Shown here one piece after another: positions 10,895 through 41,930 of a stretch of 64,000 bases of DNA. Positions within the stretch are counted from its first letter, which is position 1. Every line of letters begins with the position of its first letter. The DNA lies in NCBI GenBank assembly GCA_027492035.1, contig JAOZFT010000020.1, positions 64,001 through 128,000 on the forward strand. Direction: 5' to 3'. The position numbers and the translations under genes are program-made. The notes under the pieces are model-generated. The model worked only from the letters and a program-made list of their open reading frames with translations, had not been told where the DNA came from and did not search any database. The stretch is from Thermoproteota archaeon (lineage in GTDB: Archaea > Korarchaeota > JAOZGF01 > JAOZFZ01).

Positions 10895-12385
10895 ATGGGT
10901 TTTAAACTTGGAGGTGTAAACCCTGCTTTGGTGACTCCTTTCACTAAAGAAGGGGAACTTGATTTAAAAGCTATGGAGAAACTTTTAAAGTTTGTTATAT
11001 CACAGGGCGTAAACGGGGTTGTTCCATGTGGCTCCACGGGGGAATTTACTTACCTCTCTGTTGAGGAAAGGAAGAAATTATTAGAGTTTGTAATAGAGGA
11101 AACTAAAAAAATTGATTCAAAGGTTAAAGTTATAGCTGGTACAGGAGGAAGCAGTACAAAAGAAGCTTTAGAAATGACTAAATTCGCCGAAAAAAGGGGG
11201 GCTGACGCTGTATTGGTTTGCTCCCCCTACTATTTCAAAGTTTCAAATAGGAACCTGTATAACCACTACTACTGCATAGCCCAAGAAACAAGTATCCCAA
11301 TCATAATTTATAACATTCCTCAACTTACAGGTAACAGCATAGACTGGAGAATAATTGAAGACTTAGCTCAACTAGACAATATTGTGGGTTTAAAGGACAG
11401 CAGTGGGAACATGTCTTACTTAATGACTTGTTTAGAAAAGGCAGGTGACAAAATAAATATTGTATGTGGCTGGGATGAAATAGTTTTCCCAGCCTTAGCT
11501 GCAGGCGCAAGTGGAATGATACTTGCAAGTGCAAACATTCTGCCAGATATTTGGGTTGAAATCTATAACAAAATGAAACAAAGCAAGTTAGAGGAAGCTA
11601 GAAAGCTTCAATTCAAAATACAAAAAATTCTGAGGTTAATTGTTAAAAGCGGTGCAGTTGGGGTTAAATCTGCTTTAAAAATGATGGGTTTAAATGTTGG
11701 AAAAAGCCGCAACCCCTTAGCACTCGGTGGAGAACTGAGTTATGAAGACAAGGAAGAATTAAGGATTGAACTGGAGAAACTTGGAAAAATTGAAAAAGAA
11801 AAAGTTGAAATGGAAATTAAGCCAGGGGCTCCATTGGAAAAAAGGTTTGGTGCAATTGGTATTACTCCGAAAAAAATTAAAGATTTCAGTTTAAAAATAG
11901 GTGAAGCCTTATCAGGTTCAGAACCTGAAGTAGCTCACATAGAGGTTTTAATAGGTGAAAAAAATGGTCCAGTAGGAGAAGCATTCGCTAAGGCGAAAGC
12001 AGCCCCCTCCCCTGGACATGAGCCACTGATAGCTATTCTTGAGCCTAATTTGCCGGTTAAGCCAGCAACCTTAATAATACCCACCGTTAAAATTAAGAAT
12101 TTAAGGTCTGCATCTCTTATTTACGGTGCAGCCCAGGCAGCTGTTGCTAAAGCTGTAGCAGACACTGTTAAAGAAGGTTACATACCTGAAGAAGAAGCAG
12201 ATAATTTACTAATTCTGGCAAGTGTTTTCATTCATCCAGCAGCCGTTAACAGGCAGAGAATATACATTAATAACTACAAAGCAATGAGACATGCGTTGAG
12301 ACGCGCTATAGAAAACAGGCCAAACATAAGCGAAATACTAAATGACAAAGAAAAAGCCAAGCATCCCCTCAAGTATGAACCCTAA
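10895..12385 (+). CDS. Fusion of a DapA/class I aldolase domain with a formaldehyde-activating enzyme (Fae, H4MPT hydro-lyase) domain
   Basis: N-terminal ~300 aa: GSTGEF, IIYNIP, Schiff-base GLKDSSG. C-terminal ~165 aa: IGEAL..EVAHI, GH.P...L.PNL.VKP.T, GAAQAAVAKAVAD, VFIHP.A, NYKA, all Fae motifs. Confidence 0.9.
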   Translation: MGFKLGGVNPALVTPFTKEGELDLKAMEKLLKFVISQGVNGVVPCGSTGEFTYLSVEERKKLLEFVIEETKKIDSKVKVIAGTGGSSTKEALEMTKFAEKRGADAVLVCSPYYFKVSNRNLYNHYYCIAQETSIPIIIYNIPQLTGNSIDWRIIEDLAQLDNIVGLKDSSGNMSYLMTCLEKAGDKINIVCGWDEIVFPALAAGASGMILASANILPDIWVEIYNKMKQSKLEEARKLQFKIQKILRLIVKSGAVGVKSALKMMGLNVGKSRNPLALGGELSYEDKEELRIELEKLGKIEKEKVEMEIKPGAPLEKRFGAIGITPKKIKDFSLKIGEALSGSEPEVAHIEVLIGEKNGPVGEAFAKAKAAPSPGHEPLIAILEPNLPVKPATLIIPTVKIKNLRSASLIYGAAQAAVAKAVADTVKEGYIPEEEADNLLILASVFIHPAAVNRQRIYINNYKAMRHALRRAIENRPNISEILNDKEKAKHPLKYEP

Positions 12386-28745: not shown

Positions 28746-29520
28746 ATGGATTTATTATTTATCGCACCTATGTTGCTCTTTTTCATAGCGTTTATTTTTT
28801 CTATGTTGGGCATGAGCGGATCTCAACTTTCTACTCCTATCCTGTTTTGGTTGGGAACGGATTTTAAAACACAAGTAATTCCGCTTGGGATGCTTTTAAA
28901 TGTTGTTAACAGTGCATCTGCTGCTGGTAGATATGGGAAAAAGAAACTAATTGACTGGAAAGTTGCAGCGCTTTTTAGTTTCGTTATGATGCTGTTTGCT
29001 CCTCTCGATACATGGTTAAATATAAGTTTACCAACAAAACCAGTGATTTTAACCTTCGCAATATTCACTGCTGCAGCTGCGTTGTTAATGCTTAATAATT
29101 TGGAAACCGAGAAAAGAAAGGTCTTGGGAGTTTCTAGTAGTTCAATCCTTGGTTTCTTTGCTGGATTAATAGGAAGAGGCGGAGGTAGCTTTGTTGTGCC
29201 TTTGTTATATATGGTAGGTTTAGGAGTGAAAACAGCAGCACTTCCGCCTTTGTAGTGACATGTTCAGGTGTTTTAAGTTTCGTTTCTCATATTTTCACTG
29301 CTGCACAGCCTAATTGGATTATATGGATCCTTTGCGCGTTTTCAGTTTTAATGGAGGGCAAGTAGGTTCCTATGTAATGGCTACAAAATTAAAACCGAAA
29401 TATACGAAAAAAGTATTTGGAGCAGTGTTGCTTGGAGATGCAGCGATTCTTATTAATCCAAAATTTCTTAATAAATTAGGCAACCAAGGTTTCCCTTTTA
29501 AGAAAATAATTCTTTTATAA
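28746..29520 (+). pseudogene. Frameshifted TauE/SafE (sulfite exporter) family gene
   Basis: FSMLGM.G, GLIGRGGG..VVP; reading continues out of frame as TSAFVVTCSG.. and then GGQVGS..MATKL, so at least two frameshifts (~29240, ~29350). Confidence 0.78.
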
Positions 29521-36368: not shown

Positions 36369-38396
36369 CTAAACTTTTACGCTTGTGACCTTTAATAATT
36401 CCCTTCTTTGCTCAGCCATCTTTTTCCAAGCTTCGCTTGCAGGCTGAGAAGCTTTTTCAGGGAAAACATCCACTTTTGTTTCAAGTAAGATCGGGAAGGG
36501 GGCTGTTATTCCTAAACCGAAACCTAATGCTTCATGAGTAGCTAAACCTGAAAGGTAACGCTTCATGTAGTTTCCACCATACTCAGTATACCTTATTACA
36601 GCATCTTGATCATTTCCTGATTTTAACCTGAAACACAGCACAGTGTTACATTGCGATATAACTGAGTTATGGACGAGAAAGTATCCTTCACCTGCCAAGT
36701 ACCTGTTTGAGGTTGTTTGCAGGTCGTAAACTATTTTCACTCTTCTTTCATTTATTTTTTCAACCTCTGAAAAAGATACTTCACTATTTTTCAGCCTCAA
36801 AATTTTCATTCCCTTCTTCACATTTGAAGCAAGTGTTTCCTTTACTTGGTTTCTGGACAGTATGTAAAGTTTATGTTTCGGGGTGCATTCTATTCTGAAG
36901 CCATCTTTTGTTTCAATGTCTAAAACCAAGTTTTTCTCCTTCTTTTTCATTAAAGCCTGAACAACAGCCTCTTTTACAGCAAGTTCTTTGTTTATGTAGG
37001 GCAATGTTAATTGACGGCTTGGGAAAAGTATTTCTTCGTTACCAACTTTAACCCTTTCACTATACTGTTTAACTTCCTCAAACAATTCCTTAATTGGAAC
37101 CAGTTTGTCTTGTAAAATTATTTCTGTATGTTCTGGTACACATTTTGAGACATACGCGGGTCTTTGGGTGACAACTACAAAACCTATGTTGTAGCCTCCT
37201 GCTTGGCTGATTGCTTCAATAAAAACTTTATCTACTTTTGTTGCTGAGGGGGAGCCAAGTATGGGGGCTGTTTTTTCAGGTATAAAGTATTGGGCTTCTT
37301 CAACAACCAAAATAACAGCGAAATCTCCCTCTTTCCTTCTTTTGATGCCGTACCTAACTATTTTCTTTATTATTTCACGTGTTGTAATGTATTGGTCGTC
37401 TAAATTTGAGTCTAGAGAGTAATCAATCACTACCACAGGTTCCTTGTAAATCATTTCAATAATGTCTAATTCCTTCTCTTTCTTCTTTTTCAGGAACCCT
37501 CCCTTAACTTTTAAAGTCCACTCTAGGTAATCCAAGTCTTTTTCGCTGTTTCTTTTGCTCATTGAGTAACTTAATTCACTAGCAACTGTTAAAAGGTTTT
37601 TAGGTGTTAACTCCATTTTCCTGTTTAAAACTTCAATCACTGAGTCCCTAACTAACTTACCTACAGAAGTGTTTTTGTTTAAGCCAAGCCTGTCAACTAC
37701 CACGTACGGCTCTAAAACTTCGTTTTTTGGAAGAAAGCACCGGTAAGAAAAAACTTTAGCACCGAACCGGCTTAACACTCCATACTCTCCCCTTCTGTCT
37801 AACACAACAAACCTTGGGGGAGGGTCAAAAGTTTCCATTGAATTTTTTATCATGTTTACGACAAAACTGGATTTTCCTGACCTGGTCATTCCAGCTATGA
37901 ACAAGTGGCCTTTAGCCACAGCTCCCAGGTCCAAGTAAATAGGTATGTCGAAGGAAACGGTTTTCCCAATAGGTAAGTAAACTCCGTCTTTGTTAAGGTT
38001 CCCTTTGCCAAGTAATTTATTTAATAACTCCTTTGAAGGCTCGTAAACTAAAGCCCAGGTGGAAGGCACTGTTTCAAGTGACCTAAACTTTTTGTTTTCG
38101 TTGTCGTAGTAACCTAAAGGTTCAGCTAAGGCTACAAAGTACTCTATGTGTTTTCCATGTATAAAATTTATTCCTCTGCTTCCAGCTAAGGGTCCAGCTG
38201 ACCCTATTTTCATTTCTGGGTTGTAGGGGTAAGAATCAAAAACCCTCAGCAAAACATAGCAGGGGTGAGTTAAGGAGTGTTTAAGGGGATGTTCAATTAA
38301 GTAGTAACCTCCAATTCTTACCTTCTTTCCTTTCAGAACCACAAAGTAAATTTCATCTATTGTGGAGCCTGAAAGGATTCTTCCGATCTGTTTCAT
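36369..38396 (-). CDS. herA: HerA-family ATPase/helicase (HAS barrel + DUF87) containing an intein
   Basis: Walker A AGMTRSGKS, Walker B VVEEAQ, TQRPAYVSK|SVISQCNT motif split by the intein; overlaps the nurA stop. Confidence 0.88.
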   Translation of the reverse strand: MKQIGRILSGSTIDEIYFVVLKGKKVRIGGYYLIEHPLKHSLTHPCYVLLRVFDSYPYNPEMKIGSAGPLAGSRGINFIHGKHIEYFVALAEPLGYYDNENKKFRSLETVPSTWALVYEPSKELLNKLLGKGNLNKDGVYLPIGKTVSFDIPIYLDLGAVAKGHLFIAGMTRSGKSSFVVNMIKNSMETFDPPPRFVVLDRRGEYGVLSRFGAKVFSYRCFLPKNEVLEPYVVVDRLGLNKNTSVGKLVRDSVIEVLNRKMELTPKNLLTVASELSYSMSKRNSEKDLDYLEWTLKVKGGFLKKKKEKELDIIEMIYKEPVVVIDYSLDSNLDDQYITTREIIKKIVRYGIKRRKEGDFAVILVVEEAQYFIPEKTAPILGSPSATKVDKVFIEAISQAGGYNIGFVVVTQRPAYVSKCVPEHTEIILQDKLVPIKELFEEVKQYSERVKVGNEEILFPSRQLTLPYINKELAVKEAVVQALMKKKEKNLVLDIETKDGFRIECTPKHKLYILSRNQVKETLASNVKKGMKILRLKNSEVSFSEVEKINERRVKIVYDLQTTSNRYLAGEGYFLVHNSVISQCNTVLCFRLKSGNDQDAVIRYTEYGGNYMKRYLSGLATHEALGFGLGITAPFPILLETKVDVFPEKASQPASEAWKKMAEQRRELLKVTSVKV
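36666..37142 (-). mobile_element. Mini-intein (159 aa, no homing endonuclease) in herA
   Basis: Starts CVPEHTEI (Cys1); block B CTPKHKL, block F VYDLQT, ends FLVHN followed by Ser+1; removing it restores QRPAYVSKSVISQ. Confidence 0.92.
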
Positions 38397-39558
38397 CTAC
38401 ATTTTCACCCCTCACTTTTTCACCGAAGTGCAAATCAAGCAAATCCAAGTCCTTAAGTGAAAAATTCCCTTCCTCTATTTCGTTAATCAATTCTGAATAC
38501 AGGGATAAGTATCCCGTGGATACTGCTTCGTCTGTGAGTTTAGATAATGCATCTGCTTCATATATTGGATAAGGTAGGCCAGTTAAAGGATCTGATACAC
38601 CTATTAAAGACGAAACTATTTTATTGAAGCTTTTTAAGAGGTAACTGGGAAACTCAACTCTGTAAACTTTGTTCTCAACTGTTTTTATGTAGAAAGCGTA
38701 AATATTTGCGGCCCCTCTTTCCCCAACCGATTTACCTTTGTAAACATTGCTCATTAACCCTCTTACTTTGAAAGGGGGAGTGTACTCCCCTTTCTTTAAA
38801 ACAGGGTTCAACAGGCTCACATCTGGTACAGCAACTCTGTGGAAACCTTTTGAAGTAAACGGAATCTCAGAAAGCAATTTCTTTGAGTAATGTGTACTTC
38901 TACATCTTTTGATGAAACCTATTAAGCCTATGTTTCTTTCTTCGCACTCTTTAATTAAGGAAACAGCTGAAGAAACTGTTTCCTTAAATAATTCAAGGTA
39001 ATCAACTGAAGAATAAATTTTGTTTGGGTAATAAACATTGTTTATCAGTAAAGATCCGTCGAAGAAGAGAATGTCAGGCTTACATTCCTCAATTAACTTT
39101 TTTGCTAATTTAAACTGAAAATAGAAACCCAATAAACCAGCCCTTAACTTAGGAAATTTTTCAGTAACCCATATGTCATTGTTGAGGAATGTAATTACCA
39201 AGGGCTCTCTAATCAGCTTGAAATCTTTAAAAACAACACCTACAGCTTTTATTGAGGGAAGAAAACCTGAAACTAAATTTAAACCACTTACACCAGTATC
39301 AACACCTGCAAAAACCCCTTTAGAATTCTTTCTCTTAACTTTACCAACATTAACTCTCTCCTTCAAAACCTCAATTAAATACTTCCTTTGAGAGGCTAAC
39401 TCCTTCAAACGCAACAAAATTTTCTGGTAATTGTTTACAGGTTCCTCAAGGCTGCTAAACAGTCCTGAAACCTCAATTAAAGGTCTAACTCTGCGCTTAA
39501 CAGAAGTCTCAAAATAGTTCTCGATCACTTCTTTACTTAACGCTGCTTGCGGAATCAT
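38353..39558 (-). CDS. nurA: NurA-family nuclease
   Basis: AGVDTG, LFFDGSL, IGFIKR, RVEFP, GLPYPIYEAD motif series; operonic with herA. Confidence 0.82.
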   Translation of the reverse strand: MIPQAALSKEVIENYFETSVKRRVRPLIEVSGLFSSLEEPVNNYQKILLRLKELASQRKYLIEVLKERVNVGKVKRKNSKGVFAGVDTGVSGLNLVSGFLPSIKAVGVVFKDFKLIREPLVITFLNNDIWVTEKFPKLRAGLLGFYFQFKLAKKLIEECKPDILFFDGSLLINNVYYPNKIYSSVDYLELFKETVSSAVSLIKECEERNIGLIGFIKRCRSTHYSKKLLSEIPFTSKGFHRVAVPDVSLLNPVLKKGEYTPPFKVRGLMSNVYKGKSVGERGAANIYAFYIKTVENKVYRVEFPSYLLKSFNKIVSSLIGVSDPLTGLPYPIYEADALSKLTDEAVSTGYLSLYSELINEIEEGNFSLKDLDLLDLHFGEKVRGENVDETDRKNPFRLHNR

Positions 39559-39589
39559 GAAGAGTACACCAGAAAAGAAGCATATTTTT

Positions 39590-39606
39590 TCATATTTTAA
39601 ATATGA
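39590..39606. promoter_or_regulatory. Perfect 17-bp palindrome over the likely nurA TATA box
   Basis: TCATATTT-T-AAATATGA, 32-48 bp upstream of the nurA ATG, in the region shared with the divergent CARF regulator. Confidence 0.45.
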
Positions 39607-39742
39607 CTTATTAATTGTAGAGAGGGAGTTGTTTAAATTGTTAAAAAAGAAGTATTTAAGCTTTTCTCATTTTTACATGTTTTTTCCAAGAAAAATTTTT
39701 TACCAAGAAAAAAAAGATCTAGAAGAACATTTTTTTGCTTGA

Positions 39743-40612
39743 ATGAAAAAGAAAAAACTTAATCAAGAAAAATTTTTAAGTATAAAAGAAATAAATTTAT
39801 ATATCCAAAAAATTTTCTGGATATTGGCGAAGAAATTGACTAAGCAAGTGTACATGTTTCTTCAGGGGTTAGAGGAGGAGAGAATTTTAGAAGGTTTTAG
39901 GGCTTACCCTTCCAGGAAAGTAATAATTGTGAGAAACAGCAACGTTTCAGACTATAACAGGAAAGTAGAGACTGTAATCGACAAGTTAGTGGCGAGGATA
40001 AAGGAGAAACTTAGATATGTTGTTTCAGATTTTGAGGAAGTTTATATAAATTTTTTTAATTTCATTGAAGCCTTTAAAGGGTTGGAAAGGGTTATATTCA
40101 GGGAAAAAGTGGAGGGAAGAGAAGTTTATGTCAACATTACAGGCGGAACTCGTTTAGTTGCTTCTGCTGCCCTTTTAGCATGTTTTTTACATGGCGCTAA
40201 ACCTATTTATGTCTCCGCCAGTGAATACACAAGGATGGAAGTGATTGCTCAGAAGGCTGGGAAAGTTTTTGAAATACCTTCCATCCCTTTAGATATTCCC
40301 TCCGTTTCTTCTAAATCTAATGAAAAGAAAGCATTGATTCTGAAAACTTTATACTATGAAATGAAGGGGTATTCACCTTCCTTGGAGAAGTTAGCTGAAA
40401 AAATGGGTGAGGCAGCAACTAAAAGAAACCTGGCCTGGATAAGTTATCACGTAAGGCAATTAGAGCAGAAAGGGCTGGTTCAAACAAGGTTTTTGGGCAG
40501 AAAGTTAGCTGTTAAATTAACCAGTGCAGGGGCTTTTTCAGCAATTGCAGCATTCCCCGATTCGCAACCGTACCGAACAAAGGAGAAACCGGAACTAAAA
40601 GTTCATATTTAG
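39743..40612 (+). CDS. CARF-wHTH transcriptional regulator (Csa3-like / DUF6293 type)
   Basis: CARF motif VYVNITGGTR...AA..A...PIYV; C-terminal wHTH (SLEKLAEKMG..ISYHVRQLEQKGLV..VKLTSAG). True start probably TTG 39824 or 39836, after TTTATATA at 39796. Confidence 0.8.
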   Translation: MKKKKLNQEKFLSIKEINLYIQKIFWILAKKLTKQVYMFLQGLEEERILEGFRAYPSRKVIIVRNSNVSDYNRKVETVIDKLVARIKEKLRYVVSDFEEVYINFFNFIEAFKGLERVIFREKVEGREVYVNITGGTRLVASAALLACFLHGAKPIYVSASEYTRMEVIAQKAGKVFEIPSIPLDIPSVSSKSNEKKALILKTLYYEMKGYSPSLEKLAEKMGEAATKRNLAWISYHVRQLEQKGLVQTRFLGRKLAVKLTSAGAFSAIAAFPDSQPYRTKEKPELKVHI

Positions 40613-40625
40613 CTTCTAAAATTTT

Positions 40626-41930
40626 TTAAATGAAGTCGTATTTCTTGCTTTCCTCAACTTTTCCAGCGGCTTTGATAAGGTCCTCAAAGCTTATTTTCCA
40701 TTCTCCATCTTTATAAATTTCATATAGTAACACATTGTTCCAGATTTTTTTGTGGGTGCCGAAATATATGTTACCTGCCTTAATTATTCCTGTTTCAGCC
40801 AGTTGATAAACGAAGTCATGAAAAACACTTAAGTCGTAAACTGGTAAGAAAATTAGGAAGAAAAGCCTGTTTTCATTTTTCACCTTGTCACAAACTGTTC
40901 TGTACGGTACTTCCTTTAAAGCATTCAGGAACTTAAGGAGGAAGTTTTCGTTTGAGAAAACAAAATTAACCATTAGTAGCAAAGTTTGTTTTGCAGAGTA
41001 GGGGAAAATGTAAGGGTGGAACTTCCTTATAATCTTTTCCTCTAAATATGTTTTATACCTCTTAGATAACCATGGAAGAAAATTTGTCGGTTCCTCCTTA
41101 AAGAGCCTTCCCATTTTTTCAGCTATGTCAACAAATTTTTCTCGTGCATTAAGTTCAAGTCTTGAAATAAAGAAGAGATCCTTTAGGTTGAATTTAAAAA
41201 GTTCTTTCTTTCCTTCATCTATTTTGAAAGGTTCAATTTCATCGATTTTCATAATTAGATCTAACCAGTTAAAAACGTTCCCACCTATTCTTGTACGTTC
41301 TTTCAGGTAATAATTTAAGTTTATGTCAGGGTAGATTGGTTGATGGAGAGTGTAAAAATCAAATTCTTCAATAAAAGAGTTTTCTTTGAGGTATTTCAGG
41401 TACTTAATCAATTCATATTTCTTTTTTTCGGGGATACTGTACCTTACGTATCCTCCTCTACCGTTTAAGCCGTCGATTACAGCTAAAAGACGCCAGAAAG
41501 GGAGTGGTGTAAGCAGTTCTTCAGTAACGAGTTGTTTACTTAAATTTATTTTTGTTAAAACCCCCAAATGTTCTAGACCTAGTCTAGTTAAATCAAAAAC
41601 AGCCTTGAAACCTACAAGTTTTTCACTGTCAAACCTCCTAACCCTATAATTAACTGTTTGTTGAGGTTTACCAAGTTTCTCAGCCACAACCGTAAGGTTT
41701 CTAGGGCCTGATTTCAACATCTCCGAAATAATCTGTAAATCAAAAGAGTCAAGCTTATCATGAGTGCCGAAATAATGCTCTAATGTGTAAGGAGGAGCAA
41801 TTACTTCGTAAGGAGGCAAATTAAGACACCATCTCCCTCTTTCTCCTAAATACTTTAAAAACACCTCTACACCAAATAAGGCATTAACCTTATATAAACT
41901 AAACAATTTTTGAATGATAAACTTTTCCAA
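40626..41930 (-). CDS. Large AsnC/Lrp-type HTH regulator with two HTH-containing halves
   Basis: LDSFDLQII..GPRNLTVVAEKLGKPQQTVNYRVRR and second DLFFISRLELNAREKFVDIAEK; likely start TTG 41819. Confidence 0.68.
   Translation of the reverse strand: MEKFIIQKLFSLYKVNALFGVEVFLKYLGERGRWCLNLPPYEVIAPPYTLEHYFGTHDKLDSFDLQIISEMLKSGPRNLTVVAEKLGKPQQTVNYRVRRFDSEKLVGFKAVFDLTRLGLEHLGVLTKINLSKQLVTEELLTPLPFWRLLAVIDGLNGRGGYVRYSIPEKKKYELIKYLKYLKENSFIEEFDFYTLHQPIYPDINLNYYLKERTRIGGNVFNWLDLIMKIDEIEPFKIDEGKKELFKFNLKDLFFISRLELNAREKFVDIAEKMGRLFKEEPTNFLPWLSKRYKTYLEEKIIRKFHPYIFPYSAKQTLLLMVNFVFSNENFLLKFLNALKEVPYRTVCDKVKNENRLFFLIFLPVYDLSVFHDFVYQLAETGIIKAGNIYFGTHKKIWNNVLLYEIYKDGEWKISFEDLIKAAGKVEESKKYDFI

Follow-up and report, generated by a model that had tools for sequence, protein, structure and literature searches.

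What does an archaeal NurA–HerA pair do when it lies apart from mre11 and rad50 and faces a regulator of its own? The question is raised by a 64,000-nucleotide stretch of DNA (the window; contig JAOZFT010000020.1 of assembly GCA_027492035.1, positions 64,001 to 128,000) from a Thermoproteota archaeon placed in the Korarchaeota. In the window, herA (36369..38396, minus strand) and nurA (38353..39558, minus strand) overlap by 44 bp, and an open reading frame (ORF) for a regulator with CARF and winged helix–turn–helix (wHTH) domains (39743..40612, plus strand) diverges from nurA. An earlier note on this DNA had described the same overlapping pair and the same divergent gene, with the motif VNITGGTR (40130–40153) in its CARF domain, and both descriptions stand. 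We find that the three genes are conserved together in their phylum, that this HerA belongs to a subfamily without the trans arginine finger of other HerA proteins and that the active site of NurA is altered. We tentatively read the trio as a module that processes DNA ends, regulates its own expression and is switched by stress, with a non-canonical ATPase as its motor.

An inherited three-gene unit

The herA gene matches DUF87 and the PADLOC HerA model and encodes a 675-amino-acid precursor, whereas the 401-amino-acid NurA paralogue scores 58 bits against Pfam NurA (cut-off, 21). As the earlier note had stated, the window appears to be free of mre11, rad50 and cas genes: none was found with Pfam or PADLOC in the 48 of 50 ORFs of at least 100 amino acids that were scanned. 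A genome-wide 24-mer scan gave no array-like repeats; no dedicated array search of the window was made.

We compared 43 genomes of the phylum, including that of the window (G000, 93% complete) and its relatives (G001 and so on). G000 has three NurA genes, located in the window and on contigs C12 and C31. Contig C12 carries a repair operon in the order nurA, a 216-amino-acid gene, herA, mre11/sbcD and rad50/sbcC (L002:2716-10026), and because this operon is separate, the window pair is a paralogue, as had been suspected. Linkage to mre11 and rad50 is present at C12 and absent from the window and from the CARF-linked loci examined; a distinct nurA–herA–mre11 cluster is also present in most of the relatives' loci fetched for that purpose. 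The C12 operon type is common to G000, G020 and G023, is unlike the repair HerA found in most members of the phylum and seems to have replaced the usual operon. The C31 pair stands alone and encodes a 606-amino-acid NurA-like protein and a 618-amino-acid HerA with an intact finger (L012:8294-11918).

Matches to the N-terminal extein of the window HerA occur in 36 of the 42 other phylum genomes and in none of 18 sampled other archaea (E 1e-10); in G022 the match comes only through a second finger-less copy. Profile searches recovered the regulator, in single copy, from 37 of the 43 genomes and from 23 of the 25 good ones. It is head-to-head with nurA in 35 of these 37 genomes (27 from 31 loci, of which three are cut by contig ends, and 8 from 10 further loci that were fetched), even as the other neighbours differ from genus to genus. 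Contigs end upstream in G035 and G038 and hold only the N terminus of NurA in G028 and G017, and the regulator is split in the assemblies of G024 and G037. On contig C55 of G024 (L079), the 3′ part of the regulator shares its reading frame with a truncated herA, an arrangement suggestive of an inversion or of faulty assembly.

A tree of 88 intein-free HerA sequences, built with FastTree, unites the CARF-linked copies in a single clade (support, 0.94) in which every genus is monophyletic and G000 and G001 are the first branch. The finger-less group as a whole is separate from repair HerA (support, 1.0), and the partial HerA of G002 is placed elsewhere in the subfamily, among Bathyarchaeia-like sequences. 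Two expectations of the earlier note, a regulator syntenic with nurA in relatives and a window HerA distinct from repair orthologues, are thus borne out. Where the repair copies are orthologous, the distances for CARF-linked and repair HerA are 0.35 versus 0.36, 0.52 versus 0.64 and 1.32 versus 1.17; the repair HerA of G026/G027 and of G000/G020 are other lineages, outside this comparison. Reading tree and distances together, and bearing in mind that related genomes are not independent, we consider vertical inheritance from the phylum ancestor, as a chromosomal three-gene unit, to be the best explanation.

The surroundings fit poorly with a defence island. Housekeeping genes flank the trio, with no defence or mobile genes adjoining, the guanine–cytosine (GC) content and third-position GC of the three genes resemble those of the host, and the sole PADLOC match among 44 other window ORFs was an ABC ATPase.

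The HerA subfamily is also present in 20 of 201 sampled genomes from the class of a Bathyarchaeota-labelled record and, up to the point at which scores fall, comprises about 30 clusters (50% identity; 29 at E 1e-30). Word-index protein searches returned only the nearest kin. Subfamily herA genes of the Bathyarchaeia class are often followed by a small metallophosphoesterase gene, and five loci have the metallophosphoesterase plus an FKBP gene. Tandem nurA–herA pairs occur in this class at L153, L154, L159 and L163, and the L159 run ends in mre11. Genus g9 (L050, L051, L052 and L053) has a second finger-less nurA–herA copy, intein-free and without a regulator, behind genes for an M28 peptidase and a CofE-like ligase; the ligase link was followed up and is absent in Bathyarchaeia-labelled loci.

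Rewired active sites of HerA and NurA

The earlier note had annotated herA correctly and had noticed neither its intein, the lost arginine finger nor the altered site of NurA. The intein-free orthologue from G001, which is 68% identical, yields a model (predicted local distance difference test, 91.5) with the whole HerA fold: an N-terminal barrel, a RecA-like core, Walker A and B and the sensor Gln. Its best fold matches are HerA 9x1m (template-modelling score, 0.74) and 4d2i. The window protein is about 20–25% identical to repair HerA copies and may, as a member of the HerA family, form a hexameric ring that translocates DNA at the expense of ATP.

The window HerA keeps Walker A (GMTRSGKS; 37869..37892, minus strand), Walker B (EEAQ; Glu366-Glu367 at 37296..37301, minus strand, kept in all complete CARF-linked sequences) and the sensor motif TQRP (Gln411). 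The usual EGRKFG motif has become QAGGYN. In an alignment with 4d2i whose register to the sensor Gln is ungapped, Gly400-Gly401 (37194..37199, minus strand) occupy the position of the trans arginine finger and match R381-K382 of Sulfolobus. All 28 complete CARF-linked sequences have Gly-Gly here, whereas all 12 mre11-linked ones retain the Arg. Among 150 library matches (5 subfamily members and 19 others were unreadable), none of the 25 readable subfamily members has the finger Arg, compared with 98 of 101 readable other HerA. The three exceptions are a sister group in which the Arg is shifted by one; this group (L075, L076, L077 and L087; P0034, P0128 and P0143) reads TTGPRNG or NGGRNG at the finger, has a normal P-loop and is a possible intermediate.

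The subfamily has instead an arginine in its own P-loop. Arg172, within Walker A, is present in all 17 readable representatives; other HerA have Gly here in 66 of 74 cases and Arg or Lys in the remaining 8, which keep the finger. A basic residue occupies position 201 in 94% of the subfamily.

The region around the ATP pocket is also rich in inteins. A 159-amino-acid mini-intein (residues 419–577; 36666..37142, minus strand) is recognized by Pfam Intein_splicing and TIGR01445, both above cut-off, and is inserted 7 residues past Gln411. It has no endonuclease domain, but Cys1, the block B Thr-x-x-His, the block F Asp, the terminal His-Asn and Ser+1 can all be read in the sequence, and it is expected to splice out of the precursor to leave a product of 516 amino acids. 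The subfamily has four intein sites, all around the pocket: before T171, S173, S176 and S419. Of 29 CARF-clade copies examined, 27 have an intein, 26 at S176 and the window copy at S419, a site shared with a relative of 1,318 amino acids (P0004); the HerA of G001 is intein-free and the partial HerA of G002 has none at the P-loop. Inteins persist mainly at sites under selection, and conditional splicing has been reported for RadA. Two related mini-inteins are found elsewhere in G000, in genes that by eye encode a MoxR-like AAA ATPase (C34:3409-4881, minus strand) and an SMC protein, at its P-loop (C9:62994-65849, minus strand).

HerA of this subfamily may therefore either have a new mode of hydrolysis activation or be a poor ATPase when alone. 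We favour the first alternative because the site is invariant, because the protein evolves at a rate like that of the essential copy and because inteins have invaded it at four places.

For NurA, we aligned 30 orthologues with 6 canonical repair NurA. By motif alignment to the repair NurA of the phylum, D87, D167 and K217 of the window protein correspond to D58, D133 and K202 of Sulfolobus NurA; D87 and K217 are present in all 30 orthologues and D167 in 29, with one row masked. The invariant arginines R218 and R220 adjoin K217. The C-terminal His found in 6 of 6 repair NurA is Asp in 30 of 30 orthologues (Asp336 in the window). Other RNase H-fold enzymes have Asp at the His position. Because this third Asp is invariant, the site, D-D-D in place of D-E-D-H, suggests a nuclease that works but works differently. 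In Sulfolobus NurA, an RNase H-fold enzyme, D58, D133 and K202 are reported together with a catalytic E116 and a conserved Y298 (PMC3326311).

The regulator and a candidate operator

The regulator finds its best family matches in HFX_2341_N (PF19810; 64.5 bits, cut-off 30) and PADLOC CARF3, and its Csa3 match (TIGR01884) reaches 48.4 bits, below the cut-off of 60.2. Its model consists of a CARF domain plus a wHTH, and the top four Foldseek matches are Csa3 structures, 2wte being the best and cA4-bound Csa3 also being matched. On the basis of orthologue N termini, translation probably starts at TTG 39824 or 39836 instead of ATG 39743.

Two pocket motifs can be recognized in the CARF domain (plus strand), QGLEEER (39863–39883) and the VNITGGTR already mentioned. 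The corresponding Csa3 motifs are described as T-h-G-F-(N/D)-E-x4-R and L-x2-G-h-R (PMC8699464). The second is matched (ITGGTR) and the first is half matched, as QGLEEER keeps the Gly and the Glu but not the Phe or the spaced Arg. QGLEEER and NxTGGTR are both kept in G000, G001 and G002, and the CARF domain of G000 is 64–69% identical to those of the other two, compared with 43–45% for the wHTH and 36–49% for NurA. This is good evidence that the pocket of this order serves a ligand or a partner. Outside the order the pocket is eroded (of 22 aligned regulators, 2 retain motif 2) and the recognition helix is kept.

The spacer between nurA and the regulator has a GC content of 21%, and the head-to-head layout spans 170–270 bp across genomes. 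Relatives share a 16-bp palindromic consensus, TCAAAAT-N2-ATTTTGA, between a TATA-like box and the regulator start codon. The motif was learned from 26 loci, with G000 and G001 left out, in the lowest-GC 200 nt with a per-sequence background; a first search had converged on GC-rich coding segments and was discarded. With one locus per genus, the motif scored 87.5 against a maximum of 82.1 in 30 resamplings, but the controls were given fewer restarts and we therefore rely on the held-out test. Of the 10 genomes kept out of training, which are kin of the training set, 8 had the motif as their best site with a P value of 0.008 or less.

In the window, the candidate operator CCAAAAAATTTTCTGG (39805..39820) forms the core of a 24-bp near-palindrome (39801–39824) with 11 of 12 bases paired, as in 0.75% of shuffles. 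It lies between the start codon and a probable regulator TATA box, TTTATATA (39796..39803, plus strand; 28 nt before TTG 39824), which is placed relative to the operator like the TATA-like boxes of relatives. A second, weaker site (39763..39778; 7.3–7.6 bits) lies 42 bp upstream of the first, and a weaker site about 38–44 bp upstream recurs in several relatives. No other site in the spacer scores higher than these two, and the TATA box lies between them. A site as good near the start was found in 4% of shuffles and two at such spacing in 0.2%; the thresholds behind these figures were set with the data already in view. The position of the operator is the layout of an autorepressor.

Given the fixed head-to-head layout, and the report that Csa3a binds the promoter of a stand-alone nurA–herA operon in Sulfolobus islandicus (PMC5587795), we infer that the regulator also controls nurA, by repression or activation. 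Gel-shift binding (EMSA) by Csa3a is reported to have been non-specific (PMC8699464). The probable nurA BRE and TATA, GAAAAGCTTAAATA (39653..39666, minus strand), was read by eye, with the TATA box at 39653–39659; the same AAAGCTTAAATA occurs upstream of nurA in G001, and a similar but less exact sequence in G002. The earlier note had instead placed the nurA TATA box under a perfect 17-bp palindrome, TCATATTTTAAATATGA (39590..39606), and taken the latter for an operator. The palindrome is real but is not conserved, with a score of −7 bits against the motif shared by relatives. It is one of nine 17-bp palindromes in the window, and shuffles of the spacer yield one in 6% of 2,000 trials, close to chance. 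Because the likely TATA box lies at 39653–39659, the palindrome is probably within the nurA 5′ leader. Scanning with a Sigma-70 promoter model, which is unsuited to archaea, gave chance counts.

Convergent with the regulator is a gene for a 434-amino-acid protein (40626–41930, minus strand) with an AsnC-type HTH near its N terminus and no other family match; it is not kept next to the trio in relatives.

A tentative model of the trio

The model that we hold, tentatively and as something short of probable, is that of the self-regulated, stress-responsive end-processing module. A regulator dimer would occupy the operator that separates the regulator's TATA box from its start codon, as well as the second site about 40 bp upstream. 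It would thereby keep down its own amount and would gate the back-to-back nurA promoter from within the short spacer that the two genes share. A stress cue would alter this occupancy and switch on nurA–herA. In this order the cue could be a nucleotide or a nucleic-acid end read by the CARF pocket, and where the pocket is eroded there may be no small ligand. After the intein has spliced out, the HerA ring would use Arg172, Arg201 or both in place of the lost trans finger and pump DNA ends into the NurA ring, the three-aspartate site of which would cut. Such a machine would clear or trim DNA ends independently of Mre11/Rad50 when DNA is damaged or replication is stressed, and on this model it would serve the host's housekeeping or stress response rather than act as a dedicated anti-virus weapon.

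A bolder version goes further and is, as a whole, doubtful. It holds that this is an old HerA subfamily in which the catalytic Arg has moved from the neighbouring subunit to the protein's own P-loop, so that subunits fire without a ring-coupling finger. The three-aspartate NurA would have co-evolved with it, the CARF stress switch would respond to a ligand that Cas10 does not make, and the inteins at the ATP pocket would be a possible post-translational gate.

Several observations weigh against the module that we propose. The motor may be weak or dead, because R381K is reported to abolish the ATPase of S. islandicus HerA (PMC4351679) and a trans R–K pair is reported to be needed in DUF4297–HerA (PMC11291478); a role for Arg172 as the replacement is suggested by co-occurrence within one clade only. 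The catalytic Glu of NurA is Gln or Met (Gln148 in the window) and its Tyr is aliphatic or Phe (Leu328), each being conserved in 0 of 30 orthologues versus 6 of 6 repair NurA. On the regulatory side, the conserved operator lies towards the regulator and not near nurA, where sites are weak and inconsistent in position. The operator of G000 scores only about 7 bits and ranks 57th in the window, the best site of the held-out genome G002 is not significant and the search window for G008 was off-centre. Finally, Bathyarchaeia-labelled loci with the same HerA have no adjoining regulator (0 of 7 and 0 of 14 loci, several of which end early upstream).

The enzymatic points would suit a brake or scaffold, which we regard as unlikely. 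On this account, a HerA with Gly at both finger residues across its subfamily binds ATP, hydrolyses it poorly alone and tunes or stops repair resection, either in mixed rings with finger-bearing HerA, where it could be activated but could not activate the next subunit, or by capping ends together with a NurA weakened by the loss of Glu and Tyr. The Arg retained by every mre11-linked HerA examined fits this account, as does the position of 3 of 14 Bathyarchaeia-class pairs directly behind a finger-bearing herA–nurA pair and of one more between a HerA-like gene and mre11. However, the invariant P-loop Arg, Arg201 and the invariant Asp336 resemble replacement rather than loss, and at such low identity to repair HerA mixed rings are less to be expected. 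Only 12 of the 43 genomes, G000 not among them, have the neighbouring finger-bearing HerA family (LGRK), and an obligate partner from this family was therefore rejected.

CRISPR context and remaining alternatives

A second-messenger defence system, in which cyclic oligoadenylate from a type III system binds the CARF dimer and frees nurA–herA to degrade invader DNA or to feed spacer acquisition, seems to us quite unlikely. G000 does have a type III module on C37 (L117:5138-19396) with III-D-like RAMPs, a GGDD Cas10, a Csx1-like protein, Csx3 and Cas6. The best fold of the regulator is Csa3, including its cA4-bound form, and its CARF domain is more conserved in the order than the wHTH or NurA. 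Csa3a and Csa3b are reported to raise nurA–herA expression (PMC5587795, PMC7480081), and HerA–NurA pairs are described in type III cassettes (PMC3973734, PMC6546367). Set against this, the trio is vertical, near-universal, single copy and never next to cas genes in the loci read, the pocket is eroded outside the order, and the first Csa3 motif is only half present. HFX_2341, the member of the best-matching family that has been studied, is described as a vertical global regulator that also occurs in CRISPR-less species (PMC11434293).

Type III CRISPR is patchy among the phylum genomes. Searches of G001 (94% complete), which has an intact pocket, and of G002 (71%), G023 (91%) and G003 (99%) turned up neither Cas10 nor RAMP, although CRISPR loci are often missing from assemblies. 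TIGR02577 detects Cas10 in 19 of 43 genomes, which is a lower bound, as it missed the Cas10 of G026; this protein is 41% identical to that of G000. In G000 no cas1 was found despite the type III module, no DAC was found and SMODS gave one sub-threshold match. The cyclic oligoadenylate signal proposed in the earlier note is thus possible for G000, which combines a GGDD Cas10 with the pocket of its order, but unlikely as the general input of the unit.

It is improbable that the regulator is simply a general transcription factor of the HFX_2341 kind, autoregulated and sharing the spacer with an independently expressed nurA–herA. This would explain why good conservation is confined to the site at the regulator's start and why the pair occurs without a regulator in Bathyarchaeia-labelled genomes and as the second copy of g9, but not why the head-to-head arrangement persists while other neighbours change between genera. 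Equally improbable is a rewired pair that acts on RNA:DNA hybrids or incoming single-stranded DNA instead of double-strand ends: three simultaneous changes in the site of an RNase H-fold nuclease and the invariant R218 and R220 would allow it, whereas the HerA model keeps the whole HerA fold and RNA-related neighbours are not conserved.

Comparison with known systems

The trio resembles the archaeal HerA–NurA machine (Sulfolobus 4d2i; Thermococcus 9x1l and 9x1m) in its overlapping genes, HerA fold, Walker A and B, sensor Gln and NurA Asp-Asp-Lys. It differs in its independence from mre11/rad50, its Gly-Gly finger and P-loop Arg, the changed Glu, Tyr and His of NurA, its own divergent regulator, its intein and its low identity to the repair copies. 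With the Csa3a and Csa3b control described in S. islandicus (PMC5587795, PMC7480081) it shares a CARF–wHTH factor of the same fold and a stand-alone nurA–herA. Csa3 is described as encoded at CRISPR loci and acting from afar on many promoters, whereas the regulator of the trio is a dedicated neighbour that falls under the Csa3 cut-off, has a different palindrome and, in most of the phylum, an eroded pocket, and the type III module is on another contig.

HFX_2341/DUF6293/CARF3 (PMC11434293) is the best Pfam and PADLOC match and, like the trio regulator, is not CRISPR-linked and is vertical; it is a global regulator, and the portion of its description consulted mentions no link to nurA–herA. Sir2–HerA and DUF4297–HerA (PMC11514289, PMC11291478) are reported to pair a HerA motor with an effector gene, as here. 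The effector of the trio is instead NurA, which gave no PADLOC match; the score against NF042943 is far under the cut-off (55.6 versus 800), the trio is vertical, and the HerA proteins of those systems are described as using the trans R–K finger. The HerA–NurA pairs of type III CRISPR (PMC3973734, PMC6546367) also lie apart from mre11–rad50, but the trio is in no cas cassette among the loci read, and PDLC01055 matches only the P-loop stretch, with 40 bits.

CARF–wHTH control of nurA–herA and HerA–NurA pairs apart from mre11 thus have precedent. To these, the present analysis adds the changed active sites of both enzymes, the four sites of intein insertion, the candidate operator and the pocket that this order has kept intact. 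Our literature search, which did not cover supplements and some key FtsK–HerA and CARF surveys, found no account of the trio or of a finger-less HerA.

Other observations

Elsewhere in the window, one gene (10895–12385, plus strand) fuses a DHDPS-family domain to a formaldehyde-activating enzyme domain, and a TauE/SafE exporter ORF (28746–29255, plus strand) spans only about two-thirds of the family model and is perhaps truncated. On contig C9 of G000 (L001:3895-11192), a CedD/VirB4-like ATPase gene is two genes away from an arcadin-4/SMC-like coiled-coil gene.

Implications

A trans arginine finger is generally considered necessary for HerA and FtsK motors to couple ATP hydrolysis around the ring, and this lineage maintains throughout a slowly evolving subfamily without one. 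If the catalytic arginine has indeed moved into the P-loop, the trio would show that HerA/FtsK motors can be driven in a new manner and would be a candidate regulon for DNA stress in a deep archaeal lineage. If the enzymes are weak, it would instead be a natural brake on resection, unreported in the literature searched. An orphan regulator of the CARF3/HFX_2341 type is also tied to a specific candidate target and operator, and the well-conserved CARF pocket of this order, in genomes in which no Cas10 was found, opens the ligand of non-CRISPR CARF regulators to testing.

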